From Spirochaetia bacterium (GTDB taxonomy: Bacteria > Spirochaetota > Spirochaetia > CAKZLE01): 64,000 nucleotides of DNA. The notes beneath the pieces are model-generated. The model ran no database searches, was not told where the DNA came from, and worked only from the letters and a program-made list of their open reading frames with translations. The stretch lies in the NCBI GenBank assembly GCA_963677595.1, contig OY782041.1:736001-800000 (forward strand), given 5' to 3'. Positions 20,233 through 53,405 of this stretch are shown here, piece by piece. Within the stretch, counting starts at the first letter, position 1, and each line of letters begins with the position of its first letter. The translations under genes were made by a program, and so were the position numbers.

Positions 20233-21012
20233 CTATCTGCTCATCCGGTATTCCCCGGAATACCAGACGGTTGTGCCATCCCCTGTCTCCAGCACGATCC
20301 CGCCATGGGGATCGAGGCCAGCCAGGATACCGGTAACCAACCGGTCACTGTCCGGGTCCTTCCCTGGATCGGCAGCCTCCCCCGGCTCGAGCGTGATCTC
20401 CTCACCGAACCGGTAGAGCCTCGACTCTATGTACTCCCGCCAATCTTCCAGGGAAAGGGCCCATGCAAGGGAAGCAAGTAGGGGTTCGATCAGTTCGACC
20501 GGTTCTGCAGGGTTCCCGGCCACCATCCTGATGGAGACCGGATCCCTCCGGTAGGACTCCCCTTCCGGTACAGGAGGGAACCCTGCCTGGTTGACATTGA
20601 GCCCGATCCCTATCAGGAACAGTCTGCCGGTACTCTCACAGAGGATCCCGCAGACCTTCCTCTCACCGATGAGGATGTCGTTAGGCCACTTGATCCGGGA
20701 TGCTATACCAGAGACCCTCTCCAGCAGCCCGGCTACTGCGATCCCGGTCCGCAGGGGCAGCTGCTCCGGCGGGAAGGAGAGGTCATCACGCTCGAGGACC
20801 AGCGTCATGAGCAGTGACTGACCAGGGGAATCGTGCCAGGACCGTTTCTGTATCCTCCCCCTTCCCGACCGCTGGTGGCGGGTAACGGCGATGGTCCCAG
20901 GGAACCCGGTCTCCCGGTAGAGTTCCCTGGCTGTCTCCATGGTGGAATCAACCTCATCGAAGAGATAGACGGGAGCTTGGTGGAACGGGTTGTCAAGCGG
21001 GAGTATCCTCAT
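20233..21012 (-). CDS. birA: Biotin-[acetyl-CoA-carboxylase] ligase (no HTH)
   Basis: VDSTM, QRSGRGR, KWPND, KVCGILCE, GIGLNV. Confidence 0.92.
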   Translation of the reverse strand: MRILPLDNPFHQAPVYLFDEVDSTMETARELYRETGFPGTIAVTRHQRSGRGRIQKRSWHDSPGQSLLMTLVLERDDLSFPPEQLPLRTGIAVAGLLERVSGIASRIKWPNDILIGERKVCGILCESTGRLFLIGIGLNVNQAGFPPVPEGESYRRDPVSIRMVAGNPAEPVELIEPLLASLAWALSLEDWREYIESRLYRFGEEITLEPGEAADPGKDPDSDRLVTGILAGLDPHGGIVLETGDGTTVWYSGEYRMSR

Positions 21013-21088
21013 ACCCGAATGGTAGTATTTCACAAACAATTATGCAACATCTAAATTTCACCTTGCATTAACCCTCCTCATAATGTAT
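20995..21088 (+). repeat. 94-bp direct repeat, left copy (target duplication of IS #1)
   Basis: AAGCGGGAGTATCC...CATAATGTAT, identical by eye to 23134-23227. Confidence 0.95.
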
Positions 21089-23133
21089 CCTGTCTTTGGC
21101 AGCATAAAATTTTATAAAGTATTACCCTATATGAATTAAACCGCCATTTCTCAGCACACAAATATGTGGTCTAATTCTCGAATTTTTTTGTTGCGGCGAA
21201 AGTTTTTCTGATCTCAGCCTTGGTCATATACTTCCGGCTGAAATCAATGCCTGTAGCCTTCCCAATAGCTTCTAAGCAGGGATCGGTATGGTAGAACCGG
21301 TAAATGTTGTCCCCAAGGTAATAAGCCTTTGACTCTCGTAAGGCGTTTAGAATCTCGGAAGTAGTAAAGACTTCACCGATCTGTTTCTCCAGTAACCGCA
21401 GAATGGTCAAGGCCAGAAAGCTTATCAAGAAATGTGCCTTGATGTGATTGAGCGTGGATACGAAGACCGGCCTGGTTTTCAAATCCTTTTTTGAGATGCG
21501 GAAGGTCTCCTCAATCTCCCATAGCCCACGATACTTCCTGACAACCTGGCTGGCCGGCAGATCAAGCTCGGTAGTGAAAATCGCATGAAGTCCATCAAAC
21601 TGGGCATCACGAGCAAGTTTCTCCTCATCAATCGCCAGGAGTTGTTCCACATCTACCTCTTCCCCACTCTCCTTAGAGAATGAGGTGGTAGCAATATACT
21701 TGCGAACATCATTTGAGCCAATCACCCGTCCGGAAGCAATGCGCTTCTGTAGCTTCTCAATGATCTTAGCCCGCTCCTCTTTCGCTTTGGCAGCATACTT
21801 CGGGGAATAGCTGACTACGATCTTGACCGTATCAAGCTTCACGGAGGTCTTCTTCCCTTCCAATGAAGAGACGTGGATCTCGTAGGGGGTAATGATCTCC
21901 TTGAATCGCACCACCTCATCCGCATACGTATGCTTGGGATTCCATGGCCGTATCTGCTTGAAGAGCTTACCGGTCTTGGGGTCTGTTACGGTATCCACAA
22001 ATGAGTAGCCGGAGGTATCGAAGGCGAACTTCTTCAGTGCATCAGTACCCTTCTTCAGGGAATAGGCAACAATGAAGCCTTGTTTGTTGAGCAGGACCTG
22101 ACGAATATTGTCTCCACTGAACATCCCGTTATCGGCAACAACCACGACTCGCTGGTCCTTCGGACGGAAGGTGGAATTGACATCAGAAAACGAATCGAAG
22201 AAGGTTTTTGAATCGTGGGTGTTCCCTTCGAAGAGTTTGAACGAAAGGGGAAGTCCCTGTGCATCAAGGAACAGACCCAGCTGGACAATGGGAAGCGGAC
22301 GAAATTCTTTGGAAGGTCCCCGAATGCGAAAATCATCCTCGCGGTCAATCTCAAAATAGTAGTTGGTCACATCATAGTAAAACACAGATTTGTCTCTGCC
22401 GAAGACCTGCTCAATACGGGCATCGAGTGCATGCACGATCGCATCAGAATGGGTTTTAAAGAAATCAAGAGAGCGATAGACATCCTCAAGGGAGAAATCC
22501 ATCTTGTCAAAGAATTGGTGTTTCTTTTCAAAGGATGCTTTCTTGGAGCCTGGATTGATCAGTTGGGAGTAGACGAGCATTTTCAGGATCGCATTATGGT
22601 TGTATTCGGCCTTTGTGTACCGTCTGCGGTTATTGATTACATAATCGAGTTCAAGGAGATGGTAGAAGTAGCTGAAGGCAGCAGAGCCGAAATTATAGAT
22701 CTGCTTTGCATCCTCAGCGGTGAGCTTCTCATTCATGGGGATGGGGAGGCTGGTAACAACCTGTTCAAGAGCTTCCTCCTGTTCCGCGCGTTCAAGTACA
22801 GATTGAATGAATGCCTCGGGGTCATCGTGTTCGCGCTCTAGCACATCATAATAGCCGAGGCCCTTGATGACACGGGACTTGGACTTTCCTTGTTCGTCAC
22901 GATAGGACTTGGAGATGGAGATACTGGTGCGGCCGGTCTTGTAGGTGTTCCGTTTTACAAACATAGGATCCTCCTATGGTAGTAGTATAGCATATGTCTC
23001 TACATAAGTCGGCAGATATATGTTTCTTATATGAAAAAAAATGCTGTCCGGAATCTATGCCGCAGATAGCTGGGAGCAGGATAATTGGTGGGATTGAGGG
23101 GTGGCTGATAGCTGGGGACCTGTCAAAGTCCGG
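21089..23133 (-). mobile_element. IS1634-family insertion sequence #1 (2045 bp)
   Basis: Imperfect terminal IRs CCTGTCTTTGGCAG / revcomp CCGGACTTTGACAG (11/14), single transposase, 94-bp flanking DR. Confidence 0.92.
21171..22964 (-). CDS. IS1634-family DDE transposase
   Basis: YYDVTNYYFE, GPSKEFRP.P.VQLGL, VADNG, YRGLWEIEETFR..K. Confidence 0.95.
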   Translation of the reverse strand: MFVKRNTYKTGRTSISISKSYRDEQGKSKSRVIKGLGYYDVLEREHDDPEAFIQSVLERAEQEEALEQVVTSLPIPMNEKLTAEDAKQIYNFGSAAFSYFYHLLELDYVINNRRRYTKAEYNHNAILKMLVYSQLINPGSKKASFEKKHQFFDKMDFSLEDVYRSLDFFKTHSDAIVHALDARIEQVFGRDKSVFYYDVTNYYFEIDREDDFRIRGPSKEFRPLPIVQLGLFLDAQGLPLSFKLFEGNTHDSKTFFDSFSDVNSTFRPKDQRVVVVADNGMFSGDNIRQVLLNKQGFIVAYSLKKGTDALKKFAFDTSGYSFVDTVTDPKTGKLFKQIRPWNPKHTYADEVVRFKEIITPYEIHVSSLEGKKTSVKLDTVKIVVSYSPKYAAKAKEERAKIIEKLQKRIASGRVIGSNDVRKYIATTSFSKESGEEVDVEQLLAIDEEKLARDAQFDGLHAIFTTELDLPASQVVRKYRGLWEIEETFRISKKDLKTRPVFVSTLNHIKAHFLISFLALTILRLLEKQIGEVFTTSEILNALRESKAYYLGDNIYRFYHTDPCLEAIGKATGIDFSRKYMTKAEIRKTFAATKKFEN

Positions 23134-23227
23134 AAGCGGGAGTATCCTCATACCCGAATGGTAGTATTTCACAAACAATTATGCAACATCTAAATTTCAC
23201 CTTGCATTAACCCTCCTCATAATGTAT
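23134..23227 (+). repeat. 94-bp direct repeat, right copy
   Basis: Identical to 20995-21088. Confidence 0.95.
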
Positions 23228-48684: not shown

Positions 48685-48780
48685 AAAAAAAACCCCTCAG
48701 GGAAAAGGAGGTTAAAAACCCTGAGGGGAACATCAAAAGGAGGTCGATGAAAAAAGTCTTATGCTCTTTCATAACAATAA
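48685..48780 (-). ncRNA. Candidate small RNA with two anti-Shine-Dalgarno loops
   Basis: Two hairpins each displaying ACCUCCUUUU; the last has a 10-bp stem plus U8; no ORF. Confidence 0.55.
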
Positions 48781-48873
48781 CAACGTCCTGCCACAAAAGG
48801 TTACAAAAAAACTTTTTCAACAACTATATAAATAAGTTATCTTTGCCGGATAACTGATTTAACTTTGTTTCGC

Positions 48874-49437
48874 CTATAACATAGTCATAACCGAAAAATA
48901 AATCAAGTACCTGCAACACATTTTCACACTTTTTTTATCGAATGAAAACTGCTGCTTCAAACACTATACATAGCGTAAGATTCTTCTTCCTACGCTATAT
49001 GGTCAATTCTTCATGGAAAAGGGCTGTCTGGTATTCTCCAGGACATCCCTCCAGAGGCTCCCCTCGATCTTGACCCTGTTGCGTTCTGCAACAGCTACCC
49101 GGATCGGGATATGCACGAACTTGTTGTTCAGGAGGCTGATCAGGGTCCTCGTCTTTCCCGCCATGGCAGCGTGGACCGCATGGGCCCCGAGCCGTGAGCA
49201 GTAGATGGAATCGTTCGGGTTGGCAGGGGCACTTCGGATGATGTAGCTCGGGTCGATGTACTTGATGTTGACCTCGATCTCCTCATCATCGAAATACTGC
49301 GCGATCCTCTCCTTGAGGTACTCCCCGATGTTCACCAGCTTCTTGTTTCCTGAGGCATCGGTCTCCTTCGTCTCCTCGAGCAGGTTCTGTCCTGCTCCCT
49401 CAGCGACGAGGATGACGGCATGGTCCCGGTCGAGGAT
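48874..49437 (+). repeat. 564-bp direct repeat, left copy (identity extends 3 bp to 49440)
   Basis: CTATAACATAGTC...GTCGAGGAT(CCG), identical by eye to 51596-52159(52162), constant offset 2722. Confidence 0.95.
49003..49437 (-). pseudogene. Duplicated 3' fragment of pfk
   Basis: Encodes the same C-terminus as the ORF ending at 51725; truncated at the IS end. Confidence 0.92.
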
Positions 49438-51595
49438 CCGGTCTTTTTACCAGAATTAGCGAGTATGCCCATTTTCCCCATTTCAGCCCTGTCTAGGGCT
49501 ATTTTTTTGGCCATTACGAATTTTTAAAGAAATATTACTGTGCTACGTTGTACCACGTTGCGCCACGCTACCAAATGTGTTACACTATATTACACAGGAG
49601 GTAGCCCATGTATGTCTCCGTTATCCCAGAACACGCAACCGGCAAGCATCTGATGCAGTACGTCACAAGTACCCGCAAAGGGAAAAAGACTAAGAAAACC
49701 ACGGAGGAAACCATCGGCTATGTCGAGGACTTCCTTGATCGCTATGATGACCCGGTCGCTCACTTCAAAGCAGAGGCCAAGCGGATCACAGCAGAGCGGA
49801 AAGCTCAGCAGAAGACTATAGGGGTTGAACTCCAACCCGATGCACGGCTTCCCTTCGATCCGGATACCCACAGCTTCTCCCGTGAATTCAACATCGGCCA
49901 TGCGGCGATCAGTCAGGTATTCCACACCCTTGACCTCCACACCTTCTTTGATCGGCGCCGGATAAAGCTTGATGTGCAGTTCAATCTGACCGCTGTCATG
50001 AAACTCCTCATCTATGAGCGTATTCTGGCTCCTGCCTCCAAACGCGCTACCTGGAAGTCTCGAAGGCGATACTTTGACAAGATGGACTTCAATCTCAATG
50101 CGGTATACCAGACCCTTTCTCACATCAACCCCTGGACTGATGACCTGATCGCTCACCTGCATGCGAAGATGGTAGAACTCTATGACCGGGATACCACCCT
50201 CATGTACTATGATGTGACCAACTACTACTTTGAGATCGACGAAGCTGATGATTTTCGCATAAGGGGAATCTGCAAGGAGCACCGTCCGTTACCGATCGTG
50301 CAGATGGGGCTGTTCATGGATGAACAGGGCTTCCCGGTGTCCTTTGACTTGTTTCCCGGTAATGTCAATGACTGCCTGACCTTTGAAGCAATGAGCGAGC
50401 ATGCCAGAACCCTGTTTGAGGCCAAGCATCTGATCTTCGTAGCTGACAAGGCCATGCTCACGGGGAACAACATCGCAGATGTGATCCTCCATCATAACGG
50501 GTATGTCTTCAGCAAGTCGGTACGGGGCGGGACGAAAAAACTCAAGCAGGCGGTCAGGGATCCTCATGGCTATCTGCGGTTTGCGGAAGACGGGAAGCTC
50601 ATTGCGCCTGGTGACAACGAGACGGCAGTCTGGTCCAAGTACAAGATCCTTGATGAGCAGAAACCCACCTATGTGACGAACACGGACGGCAAGCGGGTAG
50701 CCTCCTCAGGTGTTGGCCACTACCAGATCATCTATTGGTCACGTGCGTATGACAAACGAGCCAAAGCGCAGCGGCTGGAAGCGGTAGAGCATGCGCTTGA
50801 TGCATCATCACGGCAGAGTAAGGAAGTCATCGACAGTAACTACGGGAAGAACAAGTATCTGATGACCATGGTCTATGATCCCCAGACCAAGAAGTATACC
50901 GACAACTATAAGGCCAAGACGGAGTTTGATGCTGCCAAGCTTGAAGAAGATGAGTCGTTTGACGGATTCTATGTCATTGAGACCAATGTGACGGGGCTCA
51001 GACCGTTTGTCGATGCCAGGGGACATGAGACCGGTGAACTCGAGCCTGCGTTTGCCACACCTCACCGCTGGCTCAAAGAAGAGGGCATGCTGCAGCTCAA
51101 CCGGCCGATTGGCCCTCTGGATATTATTACGATGTACCATGGGCTGTGGAAGATCGAACAGTCCTTCAGGGTCACCAAGAGTGAGTTGGATGCCCGTCCG
51201 GTCTTTCTGTCTTTAGAGGATCGAATTCATTCCCACTTCCTTACCTGCTTCATCGCTCTGCTCATCCTGCGTATCCTGGAGCATGAACTCGATCATGAAT
51301 TCTCAACAGAGCAGATAGGGACTTCCCTGAATCAGGCGAATGTCGCAGAGATCACTGGGGCAACGTACATGACTTTGCAGTACGATGAAGTCCAAAAGGC
51401 TTTGAAGGAAAAGATGGGAATCCCGTTCGGCATGAATGTATACTCGAGAGCTGCGATCAAGAAGATGATCGCTGAGACGAAAAAAAACCGGAAACGGTAG
51501 GGACGTACTACAAGTTTTTTTAGCCAGGTGCTGACCTATTGTGTTGTATTGCAATAGGTTAGCGCCGTCATTTCCTAAATTGGTAAAAACACAGG
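49438..51595 (+). mobile_element. IS1634-family insertion sequence #2 (2158 bp)
   Basis: Terminal IRs CCGGTCTTTTTACCA / revcomp CCTGTGTTTTTACCA (13/15), single transposase, 564-bp flanking DR. Confidence 0.93.
49608..51500 (+). CDS. IS1634-family DDE transposase
   Basis: YYDVTNYYFE, GICKEHRP.P.VQMGL, VADKA, YHGLWKIEQSFR..K. Confidence 0.95.
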   Translation: MYVSVIPEHATGKHLMQYVTSTRKGKKTKKTTEETIGYVEDFLDRYDDPVAHFKAEAKRITAERKAQQKTIGVELQPDARLPFDPDTHSFSREFNIGHAAISQVFHTLDLHTFFDRRRIKLDVQFNLTAVMKLLIYERILAPASKRATWKSRRRYFDKMDFNLNAVYQTLSHINPWTDDLIAHLHAKMVELYDRDTTLMYYDVTNYYFEIDEADDFRIRGICKEHRPLPIVQMGLFMDEQGFPVSFDLFPGNVNDCLTFEAMSEHARTLFEAKHLIFVADKAMLTGNNIADVILHHNGYVFSKSVRGGTKKLKQAVRDPHGYLRFAEDGKLIAPGDNETAVWSKYKILDEQKPTYVTNTDGKRVASSGVGHYQIIYWSRAYDKRAKAQRLEAVEHALDASSRQSKEVIDSNYGKNKYLMTMVYDPQTKKYTDNYKAKTEFDAAKLEEDESFDGFYVIETNVTGLRPFVDARGHETGELEPAFATPHRWLKEEGMLQLNRPIGPLDIITMYHGLWKIEQSFRVTKSELDARPVFLSLEDRIHSHFLTCFIALLILRILEHELDHEFSTEQIGTSLNQANVAEITGATYMTLQYDEVQKALKEKMGIPFGMNVYSRAAIKKMIAETKKNRKR

Positions 51596-52159
51596 CTATA
51601 ACATAGTCATAACCGAAAAATAAATCAAGTACCTGCAACACATTTTCACACTTTTTTTATCGAATGAAAACTGCTGCTTCAAACACTATACATAGCGTAA
51701 GATTCTTCTTCCTACGCTATATGGTCAATTCTTCATGGAAAAGGGCTGTCTGGTATTCTCCAGGACATCCCTCCAGAGGCTCCCCTCGATCTTGACCCTG
51801 TTGCGTTCTGCAACAGCTACCCGGATCGGGATATGCACGAACTTGTTGTTCAGGAGGCTGATCAGGGTCCTCGTCTTTCCCGCCATGGCAGCGTGGACCG
51901 CATGGGCCCCGAGCCGTGAGCAGTAGATGGAATCGTTCGGGTTGGCAGGGGCACTTCGGATGATGTAGCTCGGGTCGATGTACTTGATGTTGACCTCGAT
52001 CTCCTCATCATCGAAATACTGCGCGATCCTCTCCTTGAGGTACTCCCCGATGTTCACCAGCTTCTTGTTTCCTGAGGCATCGGTCTCCTTCGTCTCCTCG
52101 AGCAGGTTCTGTCCTGCTCCCTCAGCGACGAGGATGACGGCATGGTCCCGGTCGAGGAT
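51596..52159 (+). repeat. 564-bp direct repeat, right copy
   Basis: Identical to 48874-49437; contains pfk 3' end and downstream hairpin ATAGCGTA...TACGCTAT. Confidence 0.95.
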
Positions 52160-53053
52160 CCGCTTCTTCAGGTGTTCGAGCAGGCCGTTCGGCCCATTGA
52201 GGTCGAAGGGGTTCTCGGGGATGAGGCAGAAGTTGACATCACTCATCGCCAGGGCGGTATGGGCTGCGATGAACCCGGACTCACGCCCCATGACCTTCAC
52301 GAGTCCGATGCCGTTGATCGCGTCGGTCGCCTCGATGTGGGCTCCCCGTACCGACTGCACGGCAGTGCTCACGGCAGTATCGAACCCGAACGAGCTCTGG
52401 ATGAAGGAGAGGTCGTTATCGATGGTCTTCGGGATCCCCACGATGGCGATCCTCAATCCACGCTTCTCGATCTCCTCACCTACCTCGTCAGCTCCGCGCA
52501 GGGTCCCGTCGCCGCCGATGGTGATCAGGATGTTCACGTTCATCCGTTCGAGGGAATCAACGATCTCCTCGACCCGGTCACCGCTCCCGCGAGCTGAACC
52601 GAGGATCGTCCCGCCCTTCATCTGGATGTCATCGACGACATCCGGGTCGAGGGCAACAGGTTCATAGGGGCTGTCGGGCATGAGTCCGCGGTACCCGTAC
52701 TGGATGCCGCTGATCCTCCTGACCCCGTAGCGGTACCAGAGGCACCTAACGACTGCCCTGATGACGTTGTTGAGCCCCGGGCAGATCCCGCCGCAGGTGA
52801 CTACCGCCGCATGGACATGGGCGGGGTTGAAGTAGATCCTGTCACGGGGACCGGCAACCTCGATCAGGTCCTCATTGCCGATCTCGGGGATCCCGTCGTC
52901 TCCCGCATGGGCGTCGATATTGAAGAGGATCCGCTCGGAATCCTGTACGTAGTTGGCGATACTGTCACCCTTGATGTTTGACATCTCGATCGGTGACTTA
53001 ATCTTAGCCGGCCCGAGGGTCCGTATCGTGAAATCATAATGATTCTTTGTCAT
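51725..53053 (-). CDS. pfkA: ATP-dependent 6-phosphofructokinase (X-clade)
   Basis: [44 protein letters not shown]. Confidence 0.93.
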   Translation of the reverse strand: MTKNHYDFTIRTLGPAKIKSPIEMSNIKGDSIANYVQDSERILFNIDAHAGDDGIPEIGNEDLIEVAGPRDRIYFNPAHVHAAVVTCGGICPGLNNVIRAVVRCLWYRYGVRRISGIQYGYRGLMPDSPYEPVALDPDVVDDIQMKGGTILGSARGSGDRVEEIVDSLERMNVNILITIGGDGTLRGADEVGEEIEKRGLRIAIVGIPKTIDNDLSFIQSSFGFDTAVSTAVQSVRGAHIEATDAINGIGLVKVMGRESGFIAAHTALAMSDVNFCLIPENPFDLNGPNGLLEHLKKRILDRDHAVILVAEGAGQNLLEETKETDASGNKKLVNIGEYLKERIAQYFDDEEIEVNIKYIDPSYIIRSAPANPNDSIYCSRLGAHAVHAAMAGKTRTLISLLNNKFVHIPIRVAVAERNRVKIEGSLWRDVLENTRQPFSMKN

Positions 53054-53405
53054 GTGCAAGTTCCTCATTTAATGCTCCCTCGAACTCAGTGAATCGTTCG
53101 TTGGCATACTGCTTGACATCCTGCTGAAACTCATCATACAGGGTGATTAGCCGCTTCCCCAAAGGAGTCAGGACGGCACCTTCCCGGGCCTCCCCTCCTC
53201 TTCTTCTCTCAAGCACCTGACAGTCGAGTTCCTGCTCCAGGTTCTTCAGCATGCTGAATGCCTTGGAGTAGGAGATCCCGAGGCCTGCAGCGGCACTGCG
53301 GATTGATCCCTCGAGGGAGATCTCCTGCAGGAGCCACAGGACCCCGATCCCCATGAACTTCTCATGGGTCCCGCCGGTCAGGTAGATCTTGAGTTTCAGT
53401 TCCAT
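53034..53405 (-). CDS. ModE N-terminal-like winged-helix regulator
   Basis: G...LL..I...GSI..AA..LGISY.KA...RGG...GA.LT..G; no molybdate-binding domain. Confidence 0.82.
   Translation of the reverse strand: MELKLKIYLTGGTHEKFMGIGVLWLLQEISLEGSIRSAAAGLGISYSKAFSMLKNLEQELDCQVLERRRGGEAREGAVLTPLGKRLITLYDEFQQDVKQYANERFTEFEGALNEELAHDKESL

Follow-up and report, generated by a model that had tools for sequence, protein, structure and literature searches.

A clade of IS1634-family insertion sequences with long, variable target duplications and one end that appears anchored at predicted promoters

Insertion sequences (ISs) of the IS1634 family typically generate target-site duplications (TSDs) of 5-6 bp; as far as the consulted part of PMC2266710 goes, IS1549 and IS1634 are exceptions that make duplications of 8-514 bp, for which no mechanistic model is given. 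ISGka5, another member of the family, makes a duplication of 6 bp (PMC8024623). The closest precedent for promoter targeting is provided by TnGBS/ISLre2 (p-MULT 3) and ISKra4, Mutator-like DDE elements described as inserting 15-17 bp upstream of the -35 box (PMC3942029, consulted in part). Here, a 2158-bp IS1634-family element with 564-bp flanking repeats is described from a 64,000-nucleotide stretch of the Spirochaetia bacterium contig OY782041.1 (the window, to which coordinates refer unless stated otherwise), where one of its junctions lies in the phosphofructokinase gene pfk. Together with its relatives, this element very probably forms a clade that anchors one end on promoters. A literature link between IS1634 repeats and promoters was not found in a search that left most subscription journals, supplements, and the original descriptions of IS1634 and IS1549 outside its coverage, and the consulted parts of PMC3053259, PMC11004492, PMC11448079, PMC12274833, and PMC1798306 added nothing on target choice.

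The left (48874-49437) and right (51596-52159) copies of the repeat are 100% identical. In agreement with the initial annotation, an alignment of 48874-49440 with 51596-52162 gives a match of 567 bp with 0 mismatches; because the final CCG of this match (the 3 bases that follow the right copy) also forms the first 3 bases of the IS, the duplication proper is 564 bp. The boundaries of the IS (49438-51595, plus strand) were set by alignment with the 4 other genomic copies (99.95-100% identity), and its terminal inverted repeats (IRs) match at 13/15 positions. The far junction of the repeat falls between pfk codons 303 and 304. As had been annotated, the right copy completes an intact pfk (51725-53068, minus strand; ATP-dependent 6-phosphofructokinase, 447 aa; NF005301, 681 bits), and the left copy carries codons 304-447 and the stop as an orphan 3' fragment (49003-49437, minus strand); the IS contributes an in-frame stop shortly before this fragment. 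One boundary thus does lie inside pfk, but the terminator that had been placed within the repeat is only a hairpin of 13 pairs with a poor U-tail: it follows the pfk stop codon by 3 nt, is weakly terminator-like (51690-51722, minus strand), and was duplicated with the repeat (48968-49000, minus strand). A clean U-tailed terminator (48693-48710) is found outside the repeat and is part of a downstream candidate small RNA. Related loci come from Spirochaetia.

The single open reading frame (ORF) of the element (49608-51500, plus strand) encodes a 630-aa DDE transposase that matches the IS1634 transposase model NF033559 at 299 bits (cut-off 100), which bears out the family first assigned to it, and also matches PF01609. 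Residues D202, D280, and E517 are invariant across 54 aligned sequences. The YHGLWKIE segment around E517 is a variant YREK motif without the arginine, which fits the definition of the IS1634 family, with its long D-E spacer, in the consulted part of PMC2266710; by the same source, the 2158-bp length is slightly above the family-typical 1500-2000 bp. An AlphaFold model of the transposase (mean predicted local distance difference test score, pLDDT, of 86.6) has its best structural matches in Tn5 and piggyBac, with Tn5 first (E 1e-8), consistent with a predicted Tn5-like fold. A complex prediction for the transposase and the C-terminal 250 residues of the RpoD of this genome was uninformative (score 0.00). 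With IS1634 and IS1549 as described in the consulted part of PMC2266710, the element shares the NF033559 transposase family, a single long ORF, ends of the form C-----YT (both IS ends start CC....TT), and long direct repeats that differ from copy to copy; this likeness is one of family model, ends, and repeats, and the transposase tree holds only elements found here. It differs in the reach of its repeats, of which three (564, 577, and 707 bp) exceed the published 8-514 bp, and in the promoter anchoring of one end described below, of which the consulted part of PMC2266710 makes no mention. Long, variable repeats in IS1634 and IS1549 had been stated correctly in the initial annotation, with a ceiling of a little under 500 bp that proves too low; the proposal that this repeat is at or beyond the known range holds.

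The five genomic copies of this IS are flanked by repeats of 577, 707, 128, 564, and 213 bp. In place of the family-typical AT-rich TSD of 5-6 bp, 5/5 copies therefore have repeats of 128-707 bp, as in the named exceptions IS1634 and IS1549, and the tabulation of all copies that had been suggested as a check yields none with a short TSD. The 128-bp and 213-bp repeat pairs differ internally at 1 and 4 positions, and both of these copies first seemed repeat-less. Repeats swapped between copies of this IS were looked for and none were found. A second long-repeat element (31% protein identity) is present in two copies with repeats of 94 and 298 bp. One of these lies within the window (21089-23133, minus strand, 2045 bp) between identical 94-bp repeats (20995-21088 and 23134-23227), with its right end in a promoter-like site that scores 9/12. 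A 704-bp repeat also occurs in a same-genus genome. In contrast, four other IS1634-family elements in the source genome, which share the hidden Markov model family with this IS and resemble ISGka5 (PMC8024623, seen in part), have duplications of 5-7 bp in 13/13 copies examined; three further places checked for such elements had no usable ends. The transposases of these short-TSD elements have 20-26% identity to the long-repeat ones in partial alignments, whereas the long-repeat transposases are mutually 27-53% identical over most of their length. Since both kinds of element share the same genome, the long repeat is attributed to a transposase clade and not to the host or the assembler.

It is exceedingly improbable that the structure is an assembly artefact or reflects later insertion of the IS into an older duplication. 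The perfect identity of the repeats would suit such an origin, and the assembly is rated 6.3% contaminated and contains odd internal tandem copies of another IS. Among the assembled contigs of 4 public runs, one run (X1) has a 55-nt contig that covers the left junction with 0 differences (27 + 28 nt, which is below a bridging rule of 31 nt); X1 is possibly the source sample, although the IS in X1 shows 3 differences from the present one. The matches listed did not include the right junction, and an empty-site joint was not reported in the assembled contigs of the 4 runs. Against an artefact, the repeats abut both IS ends exactly at 7/7 long-repeat sites of this genome, three pairs of which have diverged (97-99%), and at 85 sites elsewhere. 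In addition, five same-family genomes, all other species with 72-78% identity, each have one pfk match with the promoter and the small RNA directly behind it and no IS; the comparison with IS-free relatives that had been called for thus reveals no pre-existing duplication. The repeat was almost certainly made by transposition of this element. Taken singly, the locus is a modest extension of the known range, as long variable repeats are already described for IS1634 and IS1549 (PMC2266710, in the part consulted), and the value of the observation lies in the rule that holds across the clade.

The first indication of that rule is the position of the right end. On the minus strand, 4 nt separate TTGATT-17-TATGTT, a predicted sigma70-type promoter, from the right IS end that follows it. 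In the left copy of the repeat (48878-48906, minus strand), this promoter (-35 TTGATT at 48901-48906, 17 nt, -10 TATGTT at 48878-48883) still adjoins the candidate small RNA; the second copy of the boxes (51600-51628, minus strand) points into the right end of the IS and is antisense to the transposase gene. The promoter scores only 8/12, and its status rests on conservation: the boxes and their spacing recur in relatives, and the spacer sequence varies. In the best 29 related loci, TTGATT with a 17-18 nt spacer is a top call in 13, and a further 3 carry TTGAAT, TTGATA, or TTGACT at a spacing of 17 nt; the distance from these sites to the end of the match is 162-210 nt. The cut falls at about -3/-2 relative to the small-RNA start deduced from the -10 box. 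The target is thus the conserved predicted promoter of a putative, unannotated small RNA and not pfk, which is where the far cut fell. The initial claim of a non-disruptive insertion is correct in that pfk is spared, but pfk was not the site that was chosen.

The candidate small RNA itself (48686-48871, minus strand) is approximately 185 nt long, contains two anti-Shine-Dalgarno-like CCTCCTTTT motifs, one of them in the terminator loop, and ends in the terminator noted above. A DNA match to it is present in 58/151 genomes of the class, its fold has a z of -4.5, and its terminator stem shows compensatory changes on both sides. These features are consistent with an unannotated small RNA that is conserved in Spirochaetia. 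A search of the Rfam database returned nothing above the gathering score, the genome contains no other perfect 16-nt complement of the first motif, and a search of the literature by title found nothing on this RNA. As an alternative reading, the opposite strand of 48686-48871 could be interpreted as a ribosome site followed by a 29-codon ORF.

Whether the right end is found at promoters in general was examined at 92 distinct sites (7 from this genome, 85 from other assemblies; 39 end types) in Spirochaetota, Bacillota, and Chloroflexota. These loci were collected from genome and metagenome scans and from multi-copy genomes, and each was required to have IR-defined ends directly flanked by a repeat of at least 18 bp and 94% identity. 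In 28/92 sites, a promoter that scores at least 10/12 and is oriented outward from the repeat is present at offsets -4 to +10 of the right junction, relative to 5.6 +/- 2.4 (maximum 12) in 200 upstream shuffles, and the other three combinations of junction and strand have 1, 2, and 0 such sites. The profile taken without any offset limits peaks at offsets 0 (16 sites) and -1 (6 sites), 22 in total. In a test that is independent of the offset interval, a -35 of at least 5/6 was sought 16-18 nt behind a -10 of at least 5/6: it is found in 13/44 of the hexamers that the cut abuts and in 43/2279 other flank hexamers, and with intergenic positions only, in 11/32 vs 23/873. Among the 48 sites without a cut-abutting -10, 7 lie within -4 to +10 of a strong promoter, relative to a background of 1%. 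In the source genome, 6/7 sites score at least 9/12, a value reached by 2.9% of random non-coding positions, and one of these is a tRNA-Gly promoter. The next gene is directed away from the promoter in 63/76 intergenic sites with a downstream ORF, and among the 89 sites with long enough flanks the right cut lies inside an ORF in 12/89 and the far cut in 47/89.

Several individual loci illustrate the variety of these insertions. In the source genome (L194, G000:C1 589005-591418), the same IS has cut the -10 (TATAA|T) of a tRNA-Gly(CCC) promoter and duplicated 128 bp. At L060, L135, L326, and L362, repeated insertion at the same promoter has produced tandem IS arrays with nested repeats. Outside the counts, an annotated plasmid IS1634 (L398, NZ_LN846931.1, 1839-4544) is surrounded by 175-bp and 144-bp exact repeats.

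A number of observations weigh against the promoter-anchored two-step scheme that is set out below. The interval of -4 to +10 was picked after the sites had been viewed, 57/92 sites lack a promoter of at least 9/12 within it, and the sites, drawn as they are from related elements and genomes, are only partly independent of each other. The 8/12 promoter of the present locus is equalled by 6.7% of random non-coding positions. Of 230 further entries that gave no repeat, many were redundant or cut by contig ends and 34 had both flanks longer than 2 kb; upon re-examination of repeat-less loci, 7 had missed repeats of 46-314 bp (kept out of the counts), and 13 had intact ends and no repeat. Among the re-examined loci, none had an exact duplication of 4-17 bp, and self-comparison of ten further loci revealed no repeat. 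Additionally, the transposase model shows no recognizable extra domain. Finally, the base at -2 is A in 90% of sites and that at -1 is T/A in 92%, and the former frequency shows that the target sequence is read out.

These last preferences also bear on an explanation without polymerase, in which a TATAAT-like word that melts readily is preferred by the transposase, most of the surviving sites are real promoters because insertions that disrupt genes are selected against, and the far joint forms as in the two-step scheme proposed below. The 44/92 cuts that abut a -10-like hexamer and the many sites without a scoreable -35 would follow from such a read-out, yet it is unlikely. The enrichment of the -35 persists against intergenic hexamers, and it is confined to one strand even though TATA is close to a palindrome. 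In copy 5 of this IS, the cut lacks a TATA but has TTGACA-18-TAGAGT 8 nt upstream. Moreover, no repeat shorter than 32 bp was found, from which it follows that the far cut clears the -35 box. It is judged probable that an RNA polymerase complex is needed in addition to the target sequence.

The repeats at the 92 sites range from 32-707 bp (median 122.5), and 4 are longer than 514 bp. Their lengths fit a shifted exponential with a minimum of 32 and a mean of 171 (Kolmogorov-Smirnov p 0.67). The initial annotation had proposed a widely staggered strand transfer. A single concerted cut is one way to achieve this: both ends would attack together, looping or wrapping would bring the promoter near to the upstream site, and replication would later part the strands. 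Such capture keeps the standard paired-end chemistry of DDE transposases, and it accommodates both the N|A preference common to the two ends and the variation of the length scale between elements (Kruskal p 0.016; the repeats of this element have a mean of 438 and exceed those of the others in length, p 0.004). It is nevertheless quite improbable: the lengths show no helical period of 10-11.5 bp (Rayleigh p 0.33-0.99), they fall off exponentially from 32 bp without a maximum at sizes that would favour looping, and 11/92 repeats are 32-49 bp, which is short for a free loop. The length distribution instead favours a sequential process, and the balance tips modestly towards a second joint that is made sequentially.

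The chemistry of the joints argues that the transposase makes both of them. The two ends join 5' of A on the attacked strand in 60/92 and 51/92 sites, and this shared preference, together with chance-level matches to the IS end, points to transposase-made joints. It is very unlikely that the transposase joins only one end and that the other joint arises from a template switch in repair synthesis, primed by microhomology. In 3/5 copies of this IS, including the present one, the far junction has a CC or CCG in common with the left IS end, which is of the kind that this process would leave, as is the C that follows the far cut in 53/91 sites (background 19%). However, the match continues past one base in only 8/53, which is the level expected by chance (expected fraction 0.19), 39/92 share no base, and the left end of the IS is exact in all copies, neither gaining nor losing bases. 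Microhomology as a general rule was rejected, as end matches rarely exceed one base.

The explanation that is slightly favoured overall is that the IS ends are joined to the target in two separate steps, with the promoter first. The exponential lengths, the 32-bp floor, and the lack of a helical period together suggest a first joint at a polymerase-occupied promoter followed by a memoryless processive step. In the first step, the right end would attack the template strand level with the -10 of a sigma70-type promoter or slightly beyond it, the position at which it is observed, in DNA that is probably opened or bent by the holoenzyme. In the second, the upstream stretch would be unwound or displaced processively from the nick, for example by synthesis that extends the freed 3' end and displaces a strand, or by helicase unwinding, until the left end attacks the other strand, with a preference for CT|C, after a random distance that at this locus would be the 564 bp to the cut in pfk. 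In the third, both long gaps would be filled such that the stretch is duplicated. With the right end on the template strand and the left end on the other, gap filling yields a duplication in standard DDE geometry and repair. Because one of the two cuts is intergenic, any gene that the repeat overlaps is complete on one side. At the present locus, pfk and the small RNA each retain one complete copy, and the spare promoter copy, which faces the IS, may produce antisense RNA.

Comparison with the TnGBS/ISLre2 and ISKra4 elements, as described in the consulted part of PMC3942029, reveals shared and distinct features. In both groups, insertion at sigmaA/sigma70 promoters is oriented and places the right end beside the promoter, and elements with near-perfect IRs insert both ways: here, in four loci (L064, L070, L314, and L354; IRs 14-15/16), it is the left end that has the -10 box. 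In contrast to the Mutator-like transposases of those elements, the present one matches NF033559 and PF01609 and has Tn5 as its best fold, and the clade is Tn5/IS4-like. Instead of lying 15-17 bp upstream of the -35, junctions cluster at the 3' edge of the -10: the clade cuts at or just past this box and copies the promoter along with tens to hundreds of upstream bases (PMC3942029 for the compared elements).

It is possible, and advanced here tentatively, that a widespread IS1634 clade uses the RNA polymerase-sigma70 open complex as a landing pad, with a joint in the bubble followed by an upstream step, which would constitute a new mode of target capture by DDE transposases. If so, each jump would copy a whole promoter and the gene ends within reach, break no gene, and leave a spare host promoter in antisense orientation to the transposase gene, and a mechanism would be at hand for long variable repeats. 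The fixed promoter-anchored end, the 32-bp floor, and the exponential length law make these unexplained repeats testable. Such elements would carry promoters and gene ends around genomes without gene disruption, which bears on promoter evolution and on tools for non-disruptive integration. Standard TSD finders, when limited to less than 15 bp, would miss these footprints.

Two other repeat structures were observed in the source genome. At G000:C1 1683475-1688378, a short-TSD IS1634-family element contains exact internal tandem copies of approximately 1038 and 1417 bp, possibly due to an assembly slip or nested events; these were considered as excision scars of the present IS, a reading that was rejected because the copies belong to the interior of another IS. 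At G000:C1 942471-951601, a 6.3-kb transport and catabolism block is flanked by an exact repeat of 1438 bp that carries a gene for a sugar-binding-like protein; no IS end was seen at the joints.

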